From NCBI GenBank assembly GCA_951406725.2, contig OX597823.1, positions 69,626,001 through 69,690,000 of the forward strand: a stretch of 64,000 bases of DNA, read 5' to 3'. How positions within the stretch are numbered: position 1 is the stretch's first letter; each line of letters starts with the position of its first letter. The position numbers and the translations under genes are program-made. The stretch comes from Octopus vulgaris (lineage: Eukaryota). Under the pieces are notes generated by a model, which worked only from the letters and a program-made list of their open reading frames with translations, ran no database searches and was not told the DNA's origin. Below are positions 1-55,861 of this stretch, piece by piece.

Positions 1-50
1 ACCCCTAAGGGTGGATGCTACTGTAGCTTGTAGCCCCAGGAGGACATCTC
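1..50 (-). mobile_element. Truncated second copy of the hammerhead-bearing ~353-bp retrozyme-like unit (runs off window start)
   Basis: acccctaagggtggatgctactgtagcttgtagccccaggaggacatc aligns with 49822-49870 (accactaatggtgggtgttactgtagcttgtagccccaggagaacatc). Confidence 0.75.
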
Positions 51-2638
51 GCTCAGAGATTTATTATTAACAATATAGTAATAAAAGATTCGTGGCAGGG
101 ATCGAACTAACTCCATTGCCTTTCAAATCCAATCTATTTGCTCTGTCTCATCCAGTGATCAATTAGAATGATTGCCGTTATTTCATATGGAAAATTTGTT
201 TTACAGATGACACACAGTTGCATATACACCGAAAGATATACACATCATCATACAATCACACAGTTCTGTTTATACAAAGAAATAAAACAGTGGTATGTAA
301 CAATCACAAATAAGTATATAGATATACACAAACAGATAAACGGATAGATATCACATTTCCTAGAACATATTAAGACACGCAGATTCATAAAGTAATATAC
401 AGATGCGCACTCACTTACGTACACACACAATAATACACACATGCGACCAAGTGTCTGTAAAGGTATATACACAAACATGTAGAGAAAATACAAAGAACTA
501 TGTTCAATGAAGAACTTGTAATGTCCAATGTAAAGACTAATTGACAAACTCTGCTTTCTTCCCAATTTATACCAATTATTTAATTGAAGTAGAATCTTTT
601 AGATGATCTCTTAAGGATTATGAAATTTATTTTACTCCAGTATTTAAGATCTAACCATGCTTTCTTTTCTTTGAAGTCATGTAAGCATTCATAAAATATT
701 GTTTCTTGTACTAAATATTTTAAAGTTGGACGCAAATAGAAAAAAGAACTTGTAGAATATCAATCAAATTAATAGAGATTGAATTTTCTCTTTCATCAGT
801 TAAACCAGATAAAACCAAAGGTATAACACAGAGATAACAGAGATAACGTGGTTACAAATGCGATATTCAACTCACGAAACACCTGAGCGTTAGCACAATT
901 ACAGAATTTACGTATTTTCTTTGAGAAATAATTTGATAGTGGTTTTACATTAAGAAAATTTCACAATTCATTTGTCACTATTTCTTCCTTCTGTCACAAT
1001 AATCGAATACTTTTGAACAACAGTAATTGAGAGGCGCCAAACTAGATGACTTGTCTTGTAGTATCTATAACTTTATATAATGCTAGTGATAAGTTTCGTT
1101 TTATTTTTCCCAGGCTTCTAAATAAGTCGCGATCATAAATCTGACTATTTATGTTCAGCAATGTACGAAGTTATATAAAACTTATGTTAATATGCATTGT
1201 TATCTCCTTCTCAAAATATACTATTTCACAAAATCCCTCCAAATGTGAAAATTTAGATTTTCATTTGAACTTTTCGGAATTAAACCTATTTCCAGCAACA
1301 TCTCCGATTTTAAAATATTGTTCATCGCAAACAGGATTGCAATAAAATAGATTCAAATTGTAAACAGAATTCTAATGGAACTGGATACATGAGATATTGT
1401 TCTTAACTCATTACATTTCCTATTCATACTGTTCAGTGTATCCTGTTTACATAAACCAGCAGGAGAGAACTGGCTATTTGTAGTATCAATTTTCCAGTCT
1501 TTTATTACATTTAATGACTTCTATAATCTCAAAACCAGTATATTAGTGATACTGAATATTATATGTCGAACTATAATTTTCATATTTATAAGTACGCAAT
1601 AGGATCCATTTGTAAATATACTTCGAAACTTTAAACGGAACATTAGATAAGCGAGCTTTATCAAACGTTGCAAATATTACTCGTCGCACATATTATTGTC
1701 TAGAAGTGTAGGCGTGCTTATGCATTTTAAGAATTCACTTTATCAACTACCATGTTTTAAGTTCTCTTCGACAGCACTGAACCCTGGCCAAGTATTCTCT
1801 GTCTTAGCTTTGAGGCAGCCAAAACCATGTGAAAACGACGAACGTGAAGAAACAATATGTTCCAGGATCATCGGCTGCAAACTGTTAGTGTAATGTACTG
1901 TTGCCAATTATTAACCATTGCCTTTACAAAAGTGTCTAATTGTGGCGAACCAGAACAATGATTGAGGTGGCTGTTATGAAGATCTAACAATACAGCGACG
2001 TAATATAGTCTATGTATATGTATTTGCGATTGTGAGAGAAGCGTTCGTAGTATCTAACGATACCAGAGCTCTAGGAGTAACGGCTGGTTGCCTTAAAATA
2101 TCTACATACTGTTTTAATTCAGACATTGCCTTAGCAGGCAGCAGTTGATAGTAAATATATAGGTGTTTTTGTGTGTGTGTACGTGTGCGCGCACGTGTGT
2201 GTGTGTGTGTGTGTGTCTGCGCACGTACGTGTGTGTGTGTGTGTGTACGTACGTGTGTGCGTGTATCTGTGTGTGTGTGTGCGCGTGTGTGTGTTCTCTC
2301 TTGTGGTGCATAAATCATTCCATTCCTGTTTCATCTAATTTTCGAAAAAGACTGCTGTTGAAATTTAAAGGAAAGATTATACCACAATTCTCTTAAGAAA
2401 GCTTTCTTATAGTTTATTCCACTGTTGGTTATATGTGTATGTGAGTGTATGAGTGTGTGTGTGCATGTGTGTAATAACTAGATTGTTAGGATATTTAGCA
2501 TAGAATAGAGTAGAATAAAATAGAATAGAATAGAATATAATAGATAGATAGATAGAATATATATGTACACACATACCTATACATATATGAAGAACGGGTG
2601 AGGATATAGATATATGTGCGTGTGTGTATGTATGTAGG

Positions 2639-8125: not shown

Positions 8126-8250
8126 CAACAACATCGAAAACTACCTTAGAAATGAGAACCCCAAGACACCTGAAGAAGGCTGGAGGGTATATCAGCCGAA
8201 ACGTTGTGTTGACAACAAACAAGATGAGGACAAAAATCCGTCAATTTAAA
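7971..8250 (+). mobile_element. tRNA-like head + (AAT)n + minimal hammerhead (Penelope-associated composite)
   Basis: A box TGGCGTAGTGG at 7978, B box GTTCGATTCC at 8017, (AAT)n 8041-8130, HHR 8165-8210. Confidence 0.65.
8165..8210 (+). ncRNA. Minimal type I hammerhead ribozyme
   Basis: GACAC-CTGAAGA-A-GGCTG..CAGCC-GAAAC-GTT-GTGTT: stem I GACAC/GUGUU, stem II GGCUG/CAGCC, stem III reduced to palindromic ACGU. Confidence 0.75.
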
Positions 8251-11877: not shown

Positions 11878-12982
11878 AATTGAGATAGGGGTTGTAAATG
11901 CAACCCTCCATGGGATAACATATATCCAATATACTGCTAGTGAAGTACCCAACAAGGTTAATACATAAATGTTAAGGATTGCGATGCAATCAATTCATTT
12001 ACTGTATTATATGGGCAAAGGTAAAATGTTTTACCACAAATTCATAATACAAAATAAGAAAATGGAGAAATACATCTAAATCAAATATCAATTACCAGAT
12101 AATACTCAATCACATACTTTATTAAACCACCACATAAGAAACTATAGGGTCAAACATAAAAAAGTAGAGCAAAACAGTGCACATAAAGGAGTGTACATAA
12201 AAAAGTGTACATAAAAGAGTTACGTTATACAATAAGTAGAATATATATAAGAGAATATAAATATAAGTAAATATAAATATAAATATAGATTACGTCTTAC
12301 AGCTGTTTCGGCTATGTAGATAAGTATGTCTCATTTTACTTATATTAGCCTTTTATGGTAGGTCAATATGTAGTTATAAATGAGACATTTACAAAAATAT
12401 CATAAGGCCTCTTCAAGATTATGTGATATAAATCAGTCTACATATATACCCATATGGGTGTGGGTACATACCCACAATACATCATATACATATACGTATG
12501 AGTGCATATACTCACACTCCTATACATATAAATATATACATATACATAATGATATAAATAATATAAATTAGTAAACCTACATAAGCTCCACATTAAATGT
12601 TACAGTTTTTCAACTTAATATTGTGATAATAAACATACACATATTAATACCTAAATGCAGATATACAGAGCCAATAGTACATTATATTGATTCCTACAAA
12701 TTTCTAAAGTGTCATTAAAGTTAGCATCATTATCATTGTCAATACCATTAATGCTACCAATTTATATTTACTTATATTTATATTCTCTTATATATATTCT
12801 ACTTATTGTATAACATTACTCTTTTATGTACACTTTTTTATGTACACTCCTTTATGTGCACTGTTTTGCTCTACTTTTTTATGTTTAACCCTATAGTTTC
12901 TTATGTGGTGGTTTAATAAAGTATGTGATTGAGTATTATCTGGTAATTGATATTTGATTTAGATGTATTTCTCCATTTTCTT

Positions 12983-12988
<6 letters not shown>
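11876..12988 (-). mobile_element. Penelope-like element terminal remnant with ~228-bp inverted repeats and decayed hammerhead, inserted in (TA)n
   Basis: IR 12051-12278 / 12760-12987; HHR-like motif 12292-12420 on the minus strand; (TA)n on both sides. Confidence 0.65.
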
Positions 12989-13030
<42 letters not shown>

Positions 13031-24512: not shown

Positions 24513-25003
24513 TGTTTCTTTATTAGCCACACAGGGCTGCACACAGATAGAACAAATTACTAGGTAGAGCTTTTCTTTTGAATGTTTAAAACTCCTCGTC
24601 GACGTCCAGGTTCGCCCCGAGCTCGTCGTCGTACCTCCCCTCCACTAAACCCCTATAGAATGCTTTGGTTGTGTTGAAGTCACTTAAGGTCGACCCAGGA
24701 CGGCAGAGTTGCTTGAGAGCAACGCGACACTCGCGGTGCCATTCGCCCTTCCTCGGCCTCTTTTTGATCCACGACTGCAGTTCGGTCATGGAGACGAGCT
24801 GCGGGAAAGCGTGCCTCACAAACGGCGACCACACCTGTTCACCGTCGTCTACATAGAGCCAGAGATGTCGCAGTCTCAGCGCGTGTCTGCGCATCATCAA
24901 CCACGGCATGCCCAGCCCTCCTTTTAACGGGTGTTGACAGCAAATGGATCGCCTGACCATCGGGACGCATCCTTTCCACAAGAAGCGAAAGAGGATGCGA
25001 AAG
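24511..25003 (-). mobile_element. Tx1-clade LINE fragment (post-RT ORF2 joined to 3' UTR) inside (GATA)n
   Basis: RILFRFLWKG..PLKGGLGMPWLMMRRHALRL is nearly identical to ORF2 at ~51070-51220; AATAAA at 24519-24524 (minus). Confidence 0.9.
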
Positions 25004-49788: not shown

Positions 49789-50019
49789 AACGTGAGGTAT
49801 ACTGCCGTCTCAATATGGCTAACCACTAATGGTGGGTGTTACTGTAGCTTGTAGCCCCAGGAGAACATCGTCTCCAGCTGGCTTTAGGCACACTTTCTGT
49901 GATCTTATGGTATTTGCAAAGGGAGTTCATCCTTCCCATGTCAACCTAAGTGATACGCACGGACTGCAGTTTCTAGGTTTTGACCTGTCATCAGCGTACG
50001 ACAATCACCGGTTTTCGAT
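49789..50019 (-). mobile_element. Retrozyme-like unit, part downstream of the Tx1 insertion
   Basis: Contains the HHR; 49792-49829 is directly repeated at 55451-55489. Confidence 0.8.
49950..50009 (-). ncRNA. Type I hammerhead ribozyme (retrozyme/Penelope type, palindromic UGCA loop III)
   Basis: GGTGAT-tgt-CGTACG-CTGATGA-c-AGGT caaa ACCT-a-GAAAC-TGCA-GTC^CGTGCG-t-ATCACT; predicted cut between 49962 and 49961. Confidence 0.85.
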
Positions 50020-50271
50020 TAATTCTTTATTATGATTATAAAATCGGTACATAGAAGAAAAATACAGGACATACATACAAAAAACAGTTAAGTGGTTCGT
50101 TTAAAAATTTCCAAAATATATGGATTATTCATTATACAAAAAAACTGTATTTAAATTTTCCTTTGCATTGACTAATATAACATTACATTAGATTGAAATC
50201 TTACCGAAATATTTTCAACCCCGGCAACCTATAAGGTCCCGCAGCTTTCCTTTCCTCTTCTCCATCCATAG

Positions 50272-53200
50272 TTAAACTGGGTTTCTGACACCCACTGTTT
50301 TCGCCACTTCCTTCCATCTTTTTTCATACACACCTCGTGGGAAGGTCTTCTTTTCCAGCCCCATTTTGCTCTTCAGATGATATCTGAAGTAAGTGAGCAA
50401 GCCGGGGCCTGAGACAAAGGATCCTATTGCGACTCCTTCCATTCTTGTACGCCACATGCATTCTTTTACTACTGCAACCGTGCAATGAAAACATGCCTCA
50501 CCTTCCTTCGAGAGTCCAGTTGGCGGTATCATCTTAATCATAGACTCAGCCGACAGCTGTACTCGTCCCAGATGCGATAACACGTGTTCTGTGTAACTTA
50601 TCAAGTCTGACAACTGCCGACAGTGTACAAAAGCGTGCTGGACGGTTTCATCGTCCAACCCGCATATTGGACATGTCGGTGGCACTGAAATTCCGTGCCG
50701 CGATAACTTCTCGCGAACAGGTAAAGCATTCCTATAACACTGCCAGGCCAGGGATCTTTGGAAATTATCCAAATACCCCGTCCTAAAAGTCTTTTTAAAC
50801 AGGTTGGTAAGCTGGTCTTCGTCGAGCCCCAGAGCCCCTCCTAGGACGTCGTCGTTCTTTGCCTCTACAAGCCTGCTATAAAATACCGAGGTGGTATTTC
50901 CGCAGCCGGCCTTGCCCGCCTTGTGAATCAGCATGAGTGCCTGTCGGCACTCCTTTTGCCATAAAGTCAGATTCCGTCTTTTGATGCAACCGGGTTTTAA
51001 ATTCACTAAGGAAGCCGGTCTCGGGAAAAATTCCCCTGCCAGCGGACTCCACACCTTATCACCCTCCAGGTGGTGCCAGAGATGCTTCAGCCTCAACGCA
51101 TGTCTGCGCATCATCAACCAAGGCATTCCTAACCCACCCTTTAACGGTTCCTGGCAGCAAACGGGGCGCTTCACAAGTGGCTTTCCTCCCTTCCACAAAA
51201 AGCGGAAAAGGATTCGCTCCAACTTTCTAAGCCATGAATCGGGGCAAGGGACAACGGTCAGGCGGTAAGTGATTACAGATGCAATGAACATCTGTACCAC
51301 CTCCGCCCTTCCTTTCAAGGACAGAAACCCTCCGGACCAGGTCCGTACTATGGCCTCCACCTTGTCCGTCACCTCACTCCAATTCCTCTCCGTTTGGGAG
51401 TCTGGCCCAAACCAAACTCCTAGCAACTTAACAGGACCATCTGTCCAGTGTACCAGGGCACTAGACGATATCGACTTGCTCCTCCAGGTGCCGAGGCGTA
51501 AGCCAATCGACTTGTCCTTGTTAACTTTTGCTCCTACCACCGCCTCGTATCCTCTGATAGCATCTTCTACACAAGGTAGCTGAGCCTCATTGGACACGAT
51601 GAGGTTGACGTCATCCGCAAAAGCAGAAACCGTCCTCCCGCCTCCGATTTCATCCGGGTTACTTCCCAGCCTCTCCAACTTTCGCAGCAATGGCTCGAGA
51701 GCCAACACGTACAAAAGTGGTGACAAGGGGCACCCTTGACGAACTGAACATTCGATCGAAAACGGTTCCGTTAGGTAACCGTTTATCTGGACGGTGGACT
51801 TGATGCTGCTATACATAGCGGAGATCCACCCGTGAAATTCAGGGCCCAGTCCAGCCGTTTCGAGGACCGTCGCCAGGTACTTATGGTCTACCCTATCGAA
51901 CGCTTTACTTTGGTCTAAATGGACCATTACCCCGCCCTTGCCGGTTAATTTACCCACCCTATCTAAGGTGTAGCGTATAAGGTAAAGATTTCCTGGATCG
52001 ACCTGCCTAGAATTGCACATGTCTGTGCTTTCCCTACAAGTTTCTCCACGACAGTCGTCAACCTTTTTGCCAACACCTTGGCCAAAATCTTTAACTCTAC
52101 ATTAAGTAGAGTTATGGGCCTGTAATTGCTAATGTTATCCCCCTTGCTCGGGTCTTTCTGGATTAGCGTCACCACTCCCCGGCTTACAGAACTGGAAATT
52201 CTCCCGTTCTGCTGCCAGTTCGCGTAGACGCCTGCCAGTATTCCCCCGAACAAGTCCGGCATACTTTGATAAAACTCGTAGGGCAGACCATCCAACCCCG
52301 GCGAGTACCCCCTCTATCTCCGCGGGAGTGATCGCTCCTTCACAGCACTCGACCTCACGCCCCGAGAGCCGTGGTCCGCCGGCTAGGAAGTCCTTTAAGG
52401 CCCTCCCCCGCTCCAGCGAACCCCCCTCCCCCGAACGTGCGGGTGAAATGCTGGTGAAGAAACTTTTGCATCTCCTCCTGTCCATAGATCTTGTGTCCCT
52501 GTTCGTCAGTTAAAGACTTGATTGAAGCTTTGTTACCTCTCTGACTCTCCACTCGACGGGCCCATCCGGCAACGTTAATACCTTTTCGTTTCCCTGCGCG
52601 TAGCTTAGCTCTAACTCTGCAACCTTCGTGTTTGGAGTTAAGGTGACGGTACAATACCGTCCTTGCCGCCATCATTCCGGATGCAGTGCCAGATTCCATT
52701 GCCTCGTTTAGATTCTTAACTAAATCGTCCTCTATCCTATCTAACCTTAGCTGATTGCTAAATCTAATGGACTCTGAACGAATGGCTCTTTTGGGGGAGT
52801 GCCACCATCTATTGTTAGTGATGGTGCCACATAATGCCCTCTGTACTAACACCTTAATCCGGGTACGGAAGTCTTCACAATTCAAAATAGACTTGTTCAG
52901 CTTCCAGTACCCGGGTCCCTGTCTATGGCACTTATCTAATTGCACCCTACAAGTCACAAATGTGTGATCCGTGTAAGGCACAATGTGAAACTGTGGACAA
53001 CTAAACATATCCTTATCTTTTCCTAACGAATATCCTATCTATATACGATCTGCGTGAGCCGTCGTTGTTACTCCACGTCCACTGTGGAACGCTCGGCTCA
53101 TCCAGTCAATAACGGTCTACTAGATTAAAGCTCTCTAGTAGACCCTTGAGGCTAGGCTTCCCCTTCCTATTGGTTGAGCCAACACTGTCGACCCGCGCTT

Positions 53201-53628
53201 CGAGGACAGTGTTAAAGTCCCCTACTAAGACTACCGTTTTCGACGTCACTAAAAAGTGCTCCAGATTCTGAAAAAAACCCGACTGCCTACACTCATTCGG
53301 AGCGTATACAGCTCTAACCTGAAGGACTGTTTACTTACGTGGGTTACATCCAGAACGACCAGCCTGCCTTCTGGGTCCAGAAAGACAGTACTTACCTGCA
53401 AGTCCAAGCTATTCCTGATAAGGACTGCCACGCCCCTTCCTCCTCCTCGGCTAGGAGAAATAAATTTCTCGAAACCATTTAGAAGAGACGAGAACGCTTG
53501 GCCCCGTTCATCTTGGACTCGGTTACAATAGCTACGTCAACTCCGTGTGTCGTGAGGTCGTTCAGGAGACAAATTTGTTTCCATTTCGACCCCATTCCAC
53601 GCACATTCACACAACCCAGCTTTGCCAT
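50272..53628 (-). pseudogene. Tx1 ORF2: APE endonuclease, reverse transcriptase, zf-RVT (frameshifted)
   Basis: MAKLGCVNVRG, YAPN, GDFN, TDH; DGLPYEFY, YRPITLLN, LDQSKAFDRV, VRQGCPLSP, FADD; CPICG..ETVQHAFVHC; split across several frames. Confidence 0.93.
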
Positions 53629-53652
53629 TGTCGGAGAGAGAGAAAAAAAATC

Positions 53653-55077
53653 TTACGGTTGGGACAGGGAGCATGACAGTTTAAATCTGCATGCTTCTCT
53701 TTCTTCCTCCCTTGTGGTCGTAGCTGCAGGGCTCTTAACCGGCGTTGCCATCGGGCTCTGGGTAGGTGTGGTTGCCGGGGTTATAGTAAGTTTGCCCTCC
53801 AGTATTTCGTTAGTTACGTCTCTGATAAGGTTATTTTTAAAATGTTCTTGGAGTGTTTTTTCCTTCCACTCGTCTTCCTTTATTTTTGCAAAACGAGTGG
53901 TCGACTTAGTGTCTGCAGACTTACTGAATAATTTCAGTTTTGAAAATTTTAAATACTTAAACACTCTATCGTTCCTCTCGTCGAATGCTACAATCTTTTC
54001 ATTTTTTTAATCAATTTTTTCCAATCTTGTTTTATGGGGAGGGGCTTGGCGAACTGTGTTCCAATGAATACAGTGCCGTGGGGGTAGGGCTGGGGAATTT
54101 GTTTTGTATGTATCTCTGCGGTGTTTGCTGATTTTTTCTTTGTTTGGGGAGGGGAGTCCAGGGTATTTTCTTTTTTCTTTTGTGTGTCACCTGTGTAAAT
54201 TCCATTTGTTCATTTTTATCTTCCGTTTCGATTCCCTTCCTCGTCGCAGTCTTGGGGTCTTTTTCCGCCTTTTCTTTTTCTGTGTTTGAAGCACTTTGAG
54301 GAGGGGCTTCGCTGTTTTTTCTTTTTTTTTATGCAGTTCGAGCGGACGTGACCCTTTTCACCACATTTGAAACACCTAGGTCTGCGACCCTCCACTGACA
54401 CTCTCATTGTAATTCCCTCCTCAATAAATACCCTATCGGGTAAGTTTTCTAGCACATTATTTTCTGCTTGAACGAGGAGTTCGAGCGCTTTTCCCTTCCA
54501 GTTTACCTCCTCTTTCCTTTAAATCTGCAGAATTGAGACTTTCTGCTCTACGTCGTGCAGAACCGCCGCTGCTACCCACATTATATCATATCCTCTTGGT
54601 ATGTCTTCCACATATAGTTTCGCAGTTCTTTTGCCCATATAGGTAGGTAGTAACATGATATCCTCACTTTTTAAGGTCATCGATGAAATTTCTCTTGCCA
54701 CATCAGCCGAGTCGAAATGTGCTTCAACGGTAGCGCTGCGAGCACCTCGACCGACGTAGCGAATTTTGCTCCACACCGGGGACAAGCACTTCTCTACTAT
54801 TTCGTTCTTCACGTCCATTATTTTTTTCTCTTTGTTACTGTAAACCTGCCTTGGTCTTTATTTCCTGTAATATCGCTTGCGGCGGTACCAGTTTTATTCC
54901 GTTGCCTTCCTTTTTGACCAAGTTCCGGTATTCGAACAACTGTTCTATTCTGAATTCCACTTCCGTTACGGTTCCGCCCACTGCGGCCGAAAAAGACTGT
55001 TTTCTAACCTCGATATCCTTCTGTTCACCTTTTCCCATCACGGGAAAGTCGCTCCTCGACGCCAAGTCGAACTCCAT
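53653..55077 (-). pseudogene. Tx1 ORF1 gag-like protein (frameshifted)
   Basis: Fragments 54835-55077, 54519-54818, 54216-54455 (CFKCGEKGHVRSNC CCHC knuckle) and 53653-53964, ending just upstream of the ORF2 ATG. Confidence 0.85.
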
Positions 55078-55311
55078 TTCTCAAATTATGAGAACCAATT
55101 TTTCAAAAAAATTACCCCGAAGGTAATAACAATGTTTATACACAGAATTTTCAGCCCCGTAAGGCGAAAATTACTGTCACACAACGGACAACTGTTCAAA
55201 TTCACGAGCAAACACAAACAACGACGAACAAAAAACGAACTCACTCAACAAAATAGGCAGCTAACTTCTCAATACGCAGATGAAAGAGGGGTCCCTAGAC
55301 GAGTGACAAAC

Positions 55312-55489
55312 CACCGGTTTTCGATGAAAGGGGTCCCAATGCAAATACTTATATCGTTTTTCCAGTAACTTTTCGTCACTGATCTCGAAAAACTGTATGC
55401 AAGCAATGATAAATCTCTGAACGCGGTATAAACTGTAACTGCACGACAATGTGAGGTATACTTGCCACCTCAATATGGCTAACCACTAA
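55312..55489 (-). mobile_element. Retrozyme-like unit, part upstream of the Tx1 insertion
   Basis: Begins at the TSD and ends with the ~39-bp terminal redundancy gtgaggtata..aatatggctaaccactaa. Confidence 0.8.
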
Positions 55490-55663
55490 AACAAAATGAA
55501 AACATAAAAACACGAAGAATATAGCTTATTATTATAGTTTAAAATACATACACAGTTATAAAATTACATACCCTTATATGTTTATTTTGATAACTGTGTA
55601 GGTATATGTTCTTAACTATAAACGTACACTATGTTCTTTCTGTTTTTATGTTCTATTTTGTTA
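55488..55663. repeat. Imperfect AT-rich palindrome
   Basis: aacaaaat..aacataaaaaca..tacacagttat / ataactgtgta..tgtttttatgtt..attttgtt. Confidence 0.7.
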
Positions 55664-55861
55664 TAAATATAAAATATTTTTTATACATCCTTCCCTGAAG
55701 ATATTGTCACTTGTTGAAATCAACCAAATTAATTTACTTATTTTAAGTTAATTTTGATTAATTTTTATGCTGCAAGTATTGAATATAAACAATTGTAGGA
55801 CTGGTCTTTTGAATGTTAATAAACTTTAATTAATCTTATCGCCATCATCTCTCTTGTTTTG

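Follow-up and report, generated by a model that had tools for sequence, protein, structure and literature searches.

A dispersed 353-bp hammerhead repeat of Octopus vulgaris with two fixed 3′ ends and a Tx1-like LINE at its predicted transcription start

The window, as we call the whole 64,000-nucleotide stretch of Octopus vulgaris DNA analysed here, contains a real retrozyme, a 1.12-unit copy of a dispersed 353-bp hammerhead repeat that has two fixed 3′ ends. In the account that we consider the probable one, this repeat likely carries its own snRNA-type promoter, its RNA is likely cut and closed into a ring, and a Penelope-like reverse transcriptase likely re-inserts it, with a Tx1-like LINE having entered the window copy at the predicted transcription start. 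Retrozymes, their Penelope link and Tx1 families that target U2 genes or other transposons are known already. Taken by itself, the retrozyme adds one more ordinary member to a known class; what sets it apart are the predicted promoter, the priming geometry and the site-specific LINE.

Metazoan non-LTR retrozymes have been described and their link to Penelope-like elements proposed (Cervera and de la Pena 2020, PMC7229834; Li, Clavereau and Pollet 2026, 10.64898/2026.07.22.740005). The octopus family resembles them in its non-coding unit of a few hundred base pairs, GC content below 50%, type I hammerhead and lack of LTR structure, as well as in its co-occurrence with Penelope-like elements and its proposed Penelope mobilisation. 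It differs from them in that its copies are mostly dispersed, about one unit long, with two fixed 3′ ends and inversions, rather than arranged in long tandem arrays. The window copy has one hammerhead and falls outside what Li et al. call 'active' (10.64898/2026.07.22.740005, accessible part). A site-specific LINE parasite is a feature of the octopus retrozyme that the accessible parts of PMC7229834 and 10.64898/2026.07.22.740005 do not mention for retrozymes, and a literature search outside Repbase, subscription journals and supplements found nothing on cephalopod retrozymes or on Tx1-LINE targeting of retrozymes.

The interrupted copy and its family

Removal of the LINE and of one copy of the 14-bp duplication (Table 1) leaves an empty site of 231 + 164 = 395 bp, or 1.12 units, where the unit length of 353 bp is read from an uninterrupted natural copy (L005) and unit position 1 is the first base of the duplicated 14-bp word. 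The sequence-only reading had recognised a real element, but its coordinates covered only the left 231 bp (first row of Table 1), and the 5.3-kb gap went unexplained. The direct repeat of 38-39 bp that it had reported is contained in the longer match between the two ends of the copy (E 5e-10), and its unit of ~353 bp without an ORF agrees with L005 and with the absence of any ATG ORF longer than 56 aa overlapping a natural 760-bp multi-unit copy. The 42-bp redundancy is the stopping point of one copy longer than the unit. The unit has a GC content of 44%, and an ORF with reverse transcriptase and GIY-YIG, the hallmark of autonomous Penelope-like elements, was not found within it. No flanking target duplication was found around the window copy, the longest common word being 7 nt, and whole-window repeat finders returned microsatellites only, in a window that is microsatellite-rich and ~34% GC. 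A further partial copy had been claimed at 1-50; it is real, with 89.6% identity over 1-48, an extension of 30 bp past the window start and a 15-bp inverted arm.

Table 1. Features of the interrupted retrozyme, its LINE insert and the neighbouring copy, in window positions
Feature	Position	Strand	Remark
Retrozyme 3′ part, unit positions 1-232	49789..50019	-	ends at the family's 'short' fixed 3′ end
Retrozyme 5′ part of the same copy, unit positions 190-353, with upstream target duplication copy	55312..55489	-	5′-truncated at 55489
Terminal redundancy, 3′ copy	49789..49829	-	42 columns, 90.5%
Terminal redundancy, 5′ copy	55448..55489	-	42 columns, 90.5%
14-bp target-site duplication, downstream copy	50006..50019	-	first base 50019 = unit position 1, predicted transcription start
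14-bp target-site duplication, upstream copy	55312..55325	-	
Type I hammerhead motif	49950..50009	-	unit positions 11-70
PSE-like element	55366..55389	-	ATCAGT at 55383-55378, 58 nt upstream of the target duplication's first base
Full-length Tx1/L1-like LINE, 5292 bp	50020..55311	-	co-oriented with the hammerhead; both ORFs in pieces
LINE ORF1 piece, CCHC zinc knuckle (PF00098)	54216..54518	-	
LINE ORF2 piece, 609 aa, reverse transcriptase (PF00078) and zf-RVT (PF13966)	50272..52101	-	
Second, short family copy, unit positions 151-229, minus arm	1..49	-	to the short end
15-bp inverted arm of the second copy, unit positions 261-275	55..69	+	long end

The family is dispersed, as the sequence-only reading had held, with over a thousand copies in the genome (2.8 Gb in about 30 large contigs). 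A first look gave 2445 candidates, and a 17-nt motif at the LINE target has 1502 genomic matches versus 69 for its reversed control; the searches give best-scoring copies only, so that all counts below come from biased samples of 30-150 loci. The tandem arrays that had also been expected are not borne out. Long arrays are absent from the mapped loci, the longest mapped retrozyme segment is 762 bp (L127, which carries the promoter-like element and two hammerheads), and only 4 of 70 segments cross two cut sites. Head-to-tail repeats with at least two hammerheads are thus a minority of the family (4/70; L127), and the window copy has a single one. Elsewhere in the window, inverted arms of 232 bp, 98% complementary and separated by 481 bp, occupy 12047-12278 and 12760-12991.

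The hammerhead motif

The type I hammerhead that had been described, with its internally looped stem I and minimal AC-UGCA-GU stem III, lies on the minus strand and covaries across the family. Its core consists of CUGAUGA from 49994 followed by GAAA; stem I is made up of 6 bp and 5 bp separated by a UGU/U internal loop, stem II has a C.A opposition at its base and then 3 bp with a 6-nt loop, and stem III has 2 bp closing a palindromic UGCA loop. Cleavage is predicted after the GUC at 49964-49962, that is, after 49962 or unit position 58. Rfam scans, to which the earlier reading had looked for confirmation, returned no hammerhead at gathering score or at E<=5, and the minimum-free-energy fold of the monomer (-16.5 kcal/mol, versus -8.6 for the active arrangement) keeps stem I without the catalytic arrangement, so that the hammerhead call rests on motif and covariation. 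Read between successive cut sites, a natural unit folds more stably than each of 100 shuffles (z -2.8).

Covariation was assessed with a fuzzy pattern on loci L001-L150, which yielded 112 contexts and 82 distinct sequences. Eleven of 20 named pairs vary on both sides among the 82, a result that 0 of 500 shuffles match and for which slid controls give 1-7 pairs, with cell counts inflated by relatedness among the sequences. Judged by this comparison of copies, selection acts on the hammerhead. In 12 of the 82, U-A replaces the tertiary C3-G8 pair; a U3-A8 variant and the canonical dimeric hammerhead architecture have both been reported (PMC4209133). Of 96 parsed hammerheads, 87 have a palindromic loop-3 word (TGCA 75, TA 5, TATA 4, CGCG 2, CCGG 1), which is the expectation for hammerheads that cleave as dimers (PMC4209133), and the 8-mer stem III duplex of two hammerheads has a calculated energy of -11.1 kcal/mol.

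The C.A opposition at the base of stem II had been taken as a possible impairment of the window copy. It is instead a subfamily trait, present in 80 of the 96 parsed hammerheads, with G-C at this place in older subfamilies, and a core-intact pattern that includes it has 276 exact genomic matches versus 0 for the control, so that damage specific to this copy is rejected. The G10.1-C11.1 pair, usually conserved in hammerheads (PMC4209133), is absent from the young subfamily, a point against the account favoured here. The pair next to C.A, counted by hand among 100 matches listed, is A-U in 60, G-C in 36 and mixed in 4, an exchange which indicates that stem II went on covarying after C.A became fixed. 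A second hammerhead-like core, in another repeat, lies at 8170-8210 (+) beside an (AAT)n tract, and other minimal hammerhead-like repeats occur near retrozyme copies (L002:1280-1320, L009:940-985), with which they share (TA)n landing zones.

Copy ends, RNA template and the Penelope-like partner

The ends of copies were mapped at loci L031-L150, picked by short internal queries or by the LINE, which gave 156 distinct segments; once those that fell below 85% identity, met a LINE junction or reached the edge of a locus were set aside, 92 3′ ends and 95 5′ ends remained. The 5′ ends are spread across the unit. The 3′ ends fall at 222-236 in 53 of 92 cases and at 268-284 in 26, so that the two windows together hold 79 of 92, versus about 8 expected, and define two fixed ends ~47 nt apart, 'short' at ~231 and 'long' at ~277. 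Random circular permutation with variable start points, as the sequence-only reading had expected, is rejected on the strength of these two fixed windows; permutation is one-sided, in that copying begins at fixed points and stops at varying ones. Of the two findings on copies named there as counting against the retrozyme, fixed ends do occur, at the 3′ side, and absence of hammerhead covariation does not.

The two ends also pair with each other. Loci L001-L150 contain 45 head-to-head inverted pairs, 22 of them with both outer ends classifiable, and these comprise 21 short-long pairs (two of them neighbouring duplicates), one short-short and no long-long (p 4e-7). The copy at the window start is short-long too, its minus arm ending at 229 and its 15-bp plus arm at 275. 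A (TA)n or (CA)n tract adjoins 34 of 80 fixed ends, versus 321 of 5000 random 30-mers. Penelope insertions are 5′-truncated, lie next to an inverted copy and bear a tail of 30-40 bp on one side (Craig et al. 2021, PMC8557442), and the retrozyme shares with endonuclease-positive Penelope insertions the truncation, the inverted copy, the one-end tail and the (TA)n bias (PMC8557442, PMC4209133); in these sequence comparisons, its end geometry is that of the Penelope 'tail'. It departs from Penelope insertions in having no ORF and a tail of ~47 nt rather than 30-40 (PMC8557442). Mobilisation by a Penelope-type enzyme, proposed from the outset, is likely in view of the two fixed 3′ ends, the short-long inverted pairs and the microsatellite bias.

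Two candidate partner families were found through fragments at retrozyme copies. The first, met through a fragment abutting one copy, has intact Penelope-like ORFs of ~900 aa in many near-identical copies, and its repeats contain hammerheads with palindromic stem III; Pfam recognised a reverse transcriptase in one of three of the Penelope-like ORFs. The second, older family, met at another copy, has a decayed hammerhead with a CCGGTG lead-in, as in the retrozyme, and two 3′ ends ~50 nt apart. The family labels 'Neptune-like' and 'Penelope-type' are our assumption from the appearance of the motifs. No direct homology of the unit to Penelope terminal repeats was detected in 24 element loci and 12 longer stretches of two families. 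The best common end motif, near the long end, agrees at 14 of 18 positions and is equalled by 3 of 400 shuffles for one Neptune-like copy, by 145 of 400 for another and by 394 of 400 for the Penelope-type family, and is suggestive only as a link to a partner. A palindromic stem III is a further likeness to the hammerheads of Penelope-like elements (PMC4209133), from which the retrozyme hammerhead differs in being canonical with an extended stem I; the unit around it lacks homology to those Penelope terminal repeats that were compared.

It is improbable that the repeat is the detached terminal repeat (pLTR) of a yet unfound coding Penelope-like element, its copies being stubs and not a self-standing retrozyme. 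The end geometry is as in Penelope elements, the older family offers a decayed hammerhead with the same lead-in and a similar pair of 3′ ends, and Penelope fragments adjoin copies L008, L087 and L132. The tandem unit, however, measures 353 bp where several kb would be expected, what lies behind a copy is another unit and not an ORF, and the Penelope ends tested lack direct homology to it. Young Penelope-like elements (L187-L192, L195, L196) have frames of 891-934 aa and repeats whose hammerhead has a long stem II, and one of them is a tandem of 3.6-kb units that are 99.9% identical. A 77-bp inverted pair of 77% identity (55487-55559 and 55590-55665) abuts the 5′ end of the window retrozyme and is possibly the end of another Penelope-type insertion.

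What the enzyme copied can be narrowed from the 70 fixed-end segments that the LINE has not cut. The predicted cut is crossed by 54 of them and position 1 by 45; 35 contain the promoter-like element, 22 are longer than one unit, and a single one has its 5′ start at 55-63, near the predicted cut. With 54 segments running across the cut and one starting near it, cleaved linear monomers were not the template, which by this comparison would be a ring or an uncleaved multimer, both of which fit. The claim that the terminal redundancy stems from reverse transcription around a circular RNA therefore stands as regards an over-unit or circular template, with ring and read-through RNA both compatible. 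The ring itself is putative: in 15 copies, whose picture was mixed, the repeated parts within a copy did not clearly exceed parts drawn from different copies in similarity. We nevertheless favour the ring over the uncleaved multimer, since RNA from position 1 has no upstream promoter and only more than one lap restores the promoter together with two hammerheads, as in L127.

Somewhat doubtful, though not to be neglected, is a template in the form of linear read-through RNA that rare dimer or trimer loci supply uncleaved, used by the same Penelope-type enzyme while a weak hammerhead seldom cuts. Such a template would suit a slight enrichment of 5′ ends between unit positions 1 and 20 (9/95), the 582-bp copy L126, which runs from 4 to 232 of the next unit and so equals a full copy of a dimer transcript, the C.A at the stem II base and the failure of 8 of 9 Xenopus dimers to cleave (Li, Clavereau and Pollet 2026, 10.64898/2026.07.22.740005). 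Against it, RNA from position 1 omits the promoter, so that the offspring would be unable to remake the full source locus; several subfamilies with covarying hammerheads have propagated nonetheless, L127 carries the promoter and two hammerheads, and no long arrays were seen.

The ring-based account would then run as follows. RNA polymerase II would start at unit position 1, directed by ATCAGT at -58. Where a locus has two hammerheads, as few do, their palindromic stems III would pair as a dimer, and a 353-nt RNA would be cut after 58 and ligated. DNA copies start at ~231 or ~277 and run back variably, often beyond the cut site and promoter; inverted insertions have one end of each kind, as if the broken ends of the target had been primed at two fixed sites of the RNA, and the enzyme responsible would be Penelope-like. 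The window copy would have run from 232 to a stop at 190, one lap plus 42 nt, and its single hammerhead means that it would not release unit RNA by itself. A later LINE insertion at position 1, with a 14-bp duplication as for its family elsewhere, would have placed the LINE behind the promoter of the repeat and severed the ribozyme from that promoter.

The LINE, its target and the snRNA-type promoter

Six other full-length copies of the LINE are 94-96% identical, with ORFs likewise broken. Pfam found no match for the endonuclease piece of the window LINE, and full-length relatives encode endonuclease-RT-zinc finger proteins of ~1150 aa that also match PF03372. Among the 120 hits listed, none is named Tx1; the Tx1 clade label is our inference from domain architecture. 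Searches with the LINE ends alone gave 193 and 124 candidates, of which 40 were scored and the best 30 examined per end, both sets including the window copy itself. Among the best 30 3′ ends, 26 join the retrozyme family at position 1 (3 of these offset by 2-4 nt), 2 more are flanked 5′ by the family and 3′ by a stacked element, and the remaining 2 lie within an unrelated hammerhead repeat; of the best 30 5′ ends, 29 are preceded by the upstream part of the family. Exact duplications of 14-16 bp flank 11 of 18 paired LINE copies, the others differing by a mismatch, and the duplicated word agrees with the local target subfamily, which makes the insertions independent. At the level of sequence, these junctions show a LINE family that inserts at one exact base of retrozyme repeats with target duplication, and the LINE thereby marks the predicted start with single-base precision.

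A composite in which the LINE and the flanking repeat halves move as one unit with terminal repeats is very unlikely and was rejected. It would account for the repeat on both sides of the LINE and for the 42-bp direct repeat that bounds the whole 5.7 kb, but the LINE ends are 92-100% identical while the flanking repeats are 71 to 96% identical and of different subfamilies, the duplications match the local subfamily, and 5′-truncated LINEs have target duplications as well.

The base chosen by the LINE coincides with the start predicted from a PSE-like element. ATCAGT occurs at -57 to -61 in 10 of 10 U1 and 11 of 12 U2 loci, which have four unrelated-looking upstream sequences, and the single U2 locus without it has a sister LINE inserted at +1. 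With a matrix built from the snRNA sites, the PSE-like site of the window ranks first in the unit and among the top 30 of 127,952 window positions; ATCAGT and the target motif at this spacing occur together at 905 genomic sites with variable spacers, versus 0 for the control, the promoter core being only 6-7 nt. The retrozyme is thus likely to be transcribed from its own snRNA-type promoter, and unit position 1 is the predicted transcription start. Newt satellite 2, an amphibian tandem satellite, is an earlier example of a hammerhead repeat under an snRNA-type promoter, which was shown experimentally there (PMC2220036, citing Coats et al. 1994). The octopus case differs in that the promoter is deduced from motif position and the family is dispersed and invertebrate.

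Target-specific LINEs of the Tx1 clade include Tx1L in Tx1D, Keno in U2 genes, Tx1-Mar in Mariner-N4_AMi, and Kibi and Koshi (Kojima 2015, PMC4494074). The octopus LINE is like them in its APE-RT organisation, its CCHC ORF1 and its multicopy targets, which in the clade include transposons and U2 genes; unlike those named in the accessible part of that paper, it targets a hammerhead retrozyme, at one base aligned with U1/U2 +1. Two of its insertions lie in the unrelated hammerhead repeat (L216:5623-6380, minus, and L217:5879-6460), which starts with ATCG and has ATCAGT upstream, 58 nt away in the one measurable insertion. A sister LINE, 82% identical over 3.6 kb (L220:2507-8140), sits at U2 gene +1 with a 14-bp duplication, and its head matches an element stacked in L219.

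Whether these LINEs read DNA or follow a promoter can be weighed on this material. The chances are even that the endonuclease simply reads the DNA around ATCG...CYGGTG, the promoter-start match being incidental or historical, without tethering. The 17-nt motif is nearly confined to the retrozyme family, so that sequence reading alone would steer most insertions there; the endonuclease mainly sets target choice in such LINEs (PMC4494074), and U2 likewise begins with ATCG. What speaks against sequence reading is that the two insertions in the unrelated repeat share little with the family target beyond ATCG and the ATCAGT spacing, and that the sister family uses U2 +1 and also appears stacked at a retrozyme repeat.

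The reading with the widest reach, offered tentatively and as doubtful in its entirety, is a three-layer parasite system, in which a ribozyme ring with an external snRNA-type promoter would inherit that promoter only by more than one lap of copying, a Penelope enzyme would prime both broken ends at two sites of the ring, and a Tx1 LINE clade would target the promoter, at +1 of PSE-driven retrozymes or U2 genes, and not sequence alone. If it were true, the LINE clade would switch targets with little change in protein. The LINE and its U2-targeting sister lend themselves to the question of whether Tx1 endonucleases go by the DNA sequence or are guided by the promoter complex, a question that bears on tools for site-specific gene insertion. 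The system also bears on how animal retrozymes are transcribed and inserted and on the one-sided tails of Penelope-like elements, and its coordinates are exact, with the start base and the cut site predicted and two priming points spaced by 47 nt on an RNA of 353 nt, which is small enough for assays.

No LINE relatives were found in metagenome contigs. In the window, 24829-24999 is a 171-bp older relative (74%) of LINE ORF2. Stacking of LINEs at one target was observed at L218, L219 and L076, where a second copy or the sister family enters the duplicated word of the first. The LINE 5′ UTR at 55280-55300 has GGGACCCCTCTTTCATC, close to the sequence just upstream of the target (55326-55340, minus), and this is possibly a captured piece of the target.
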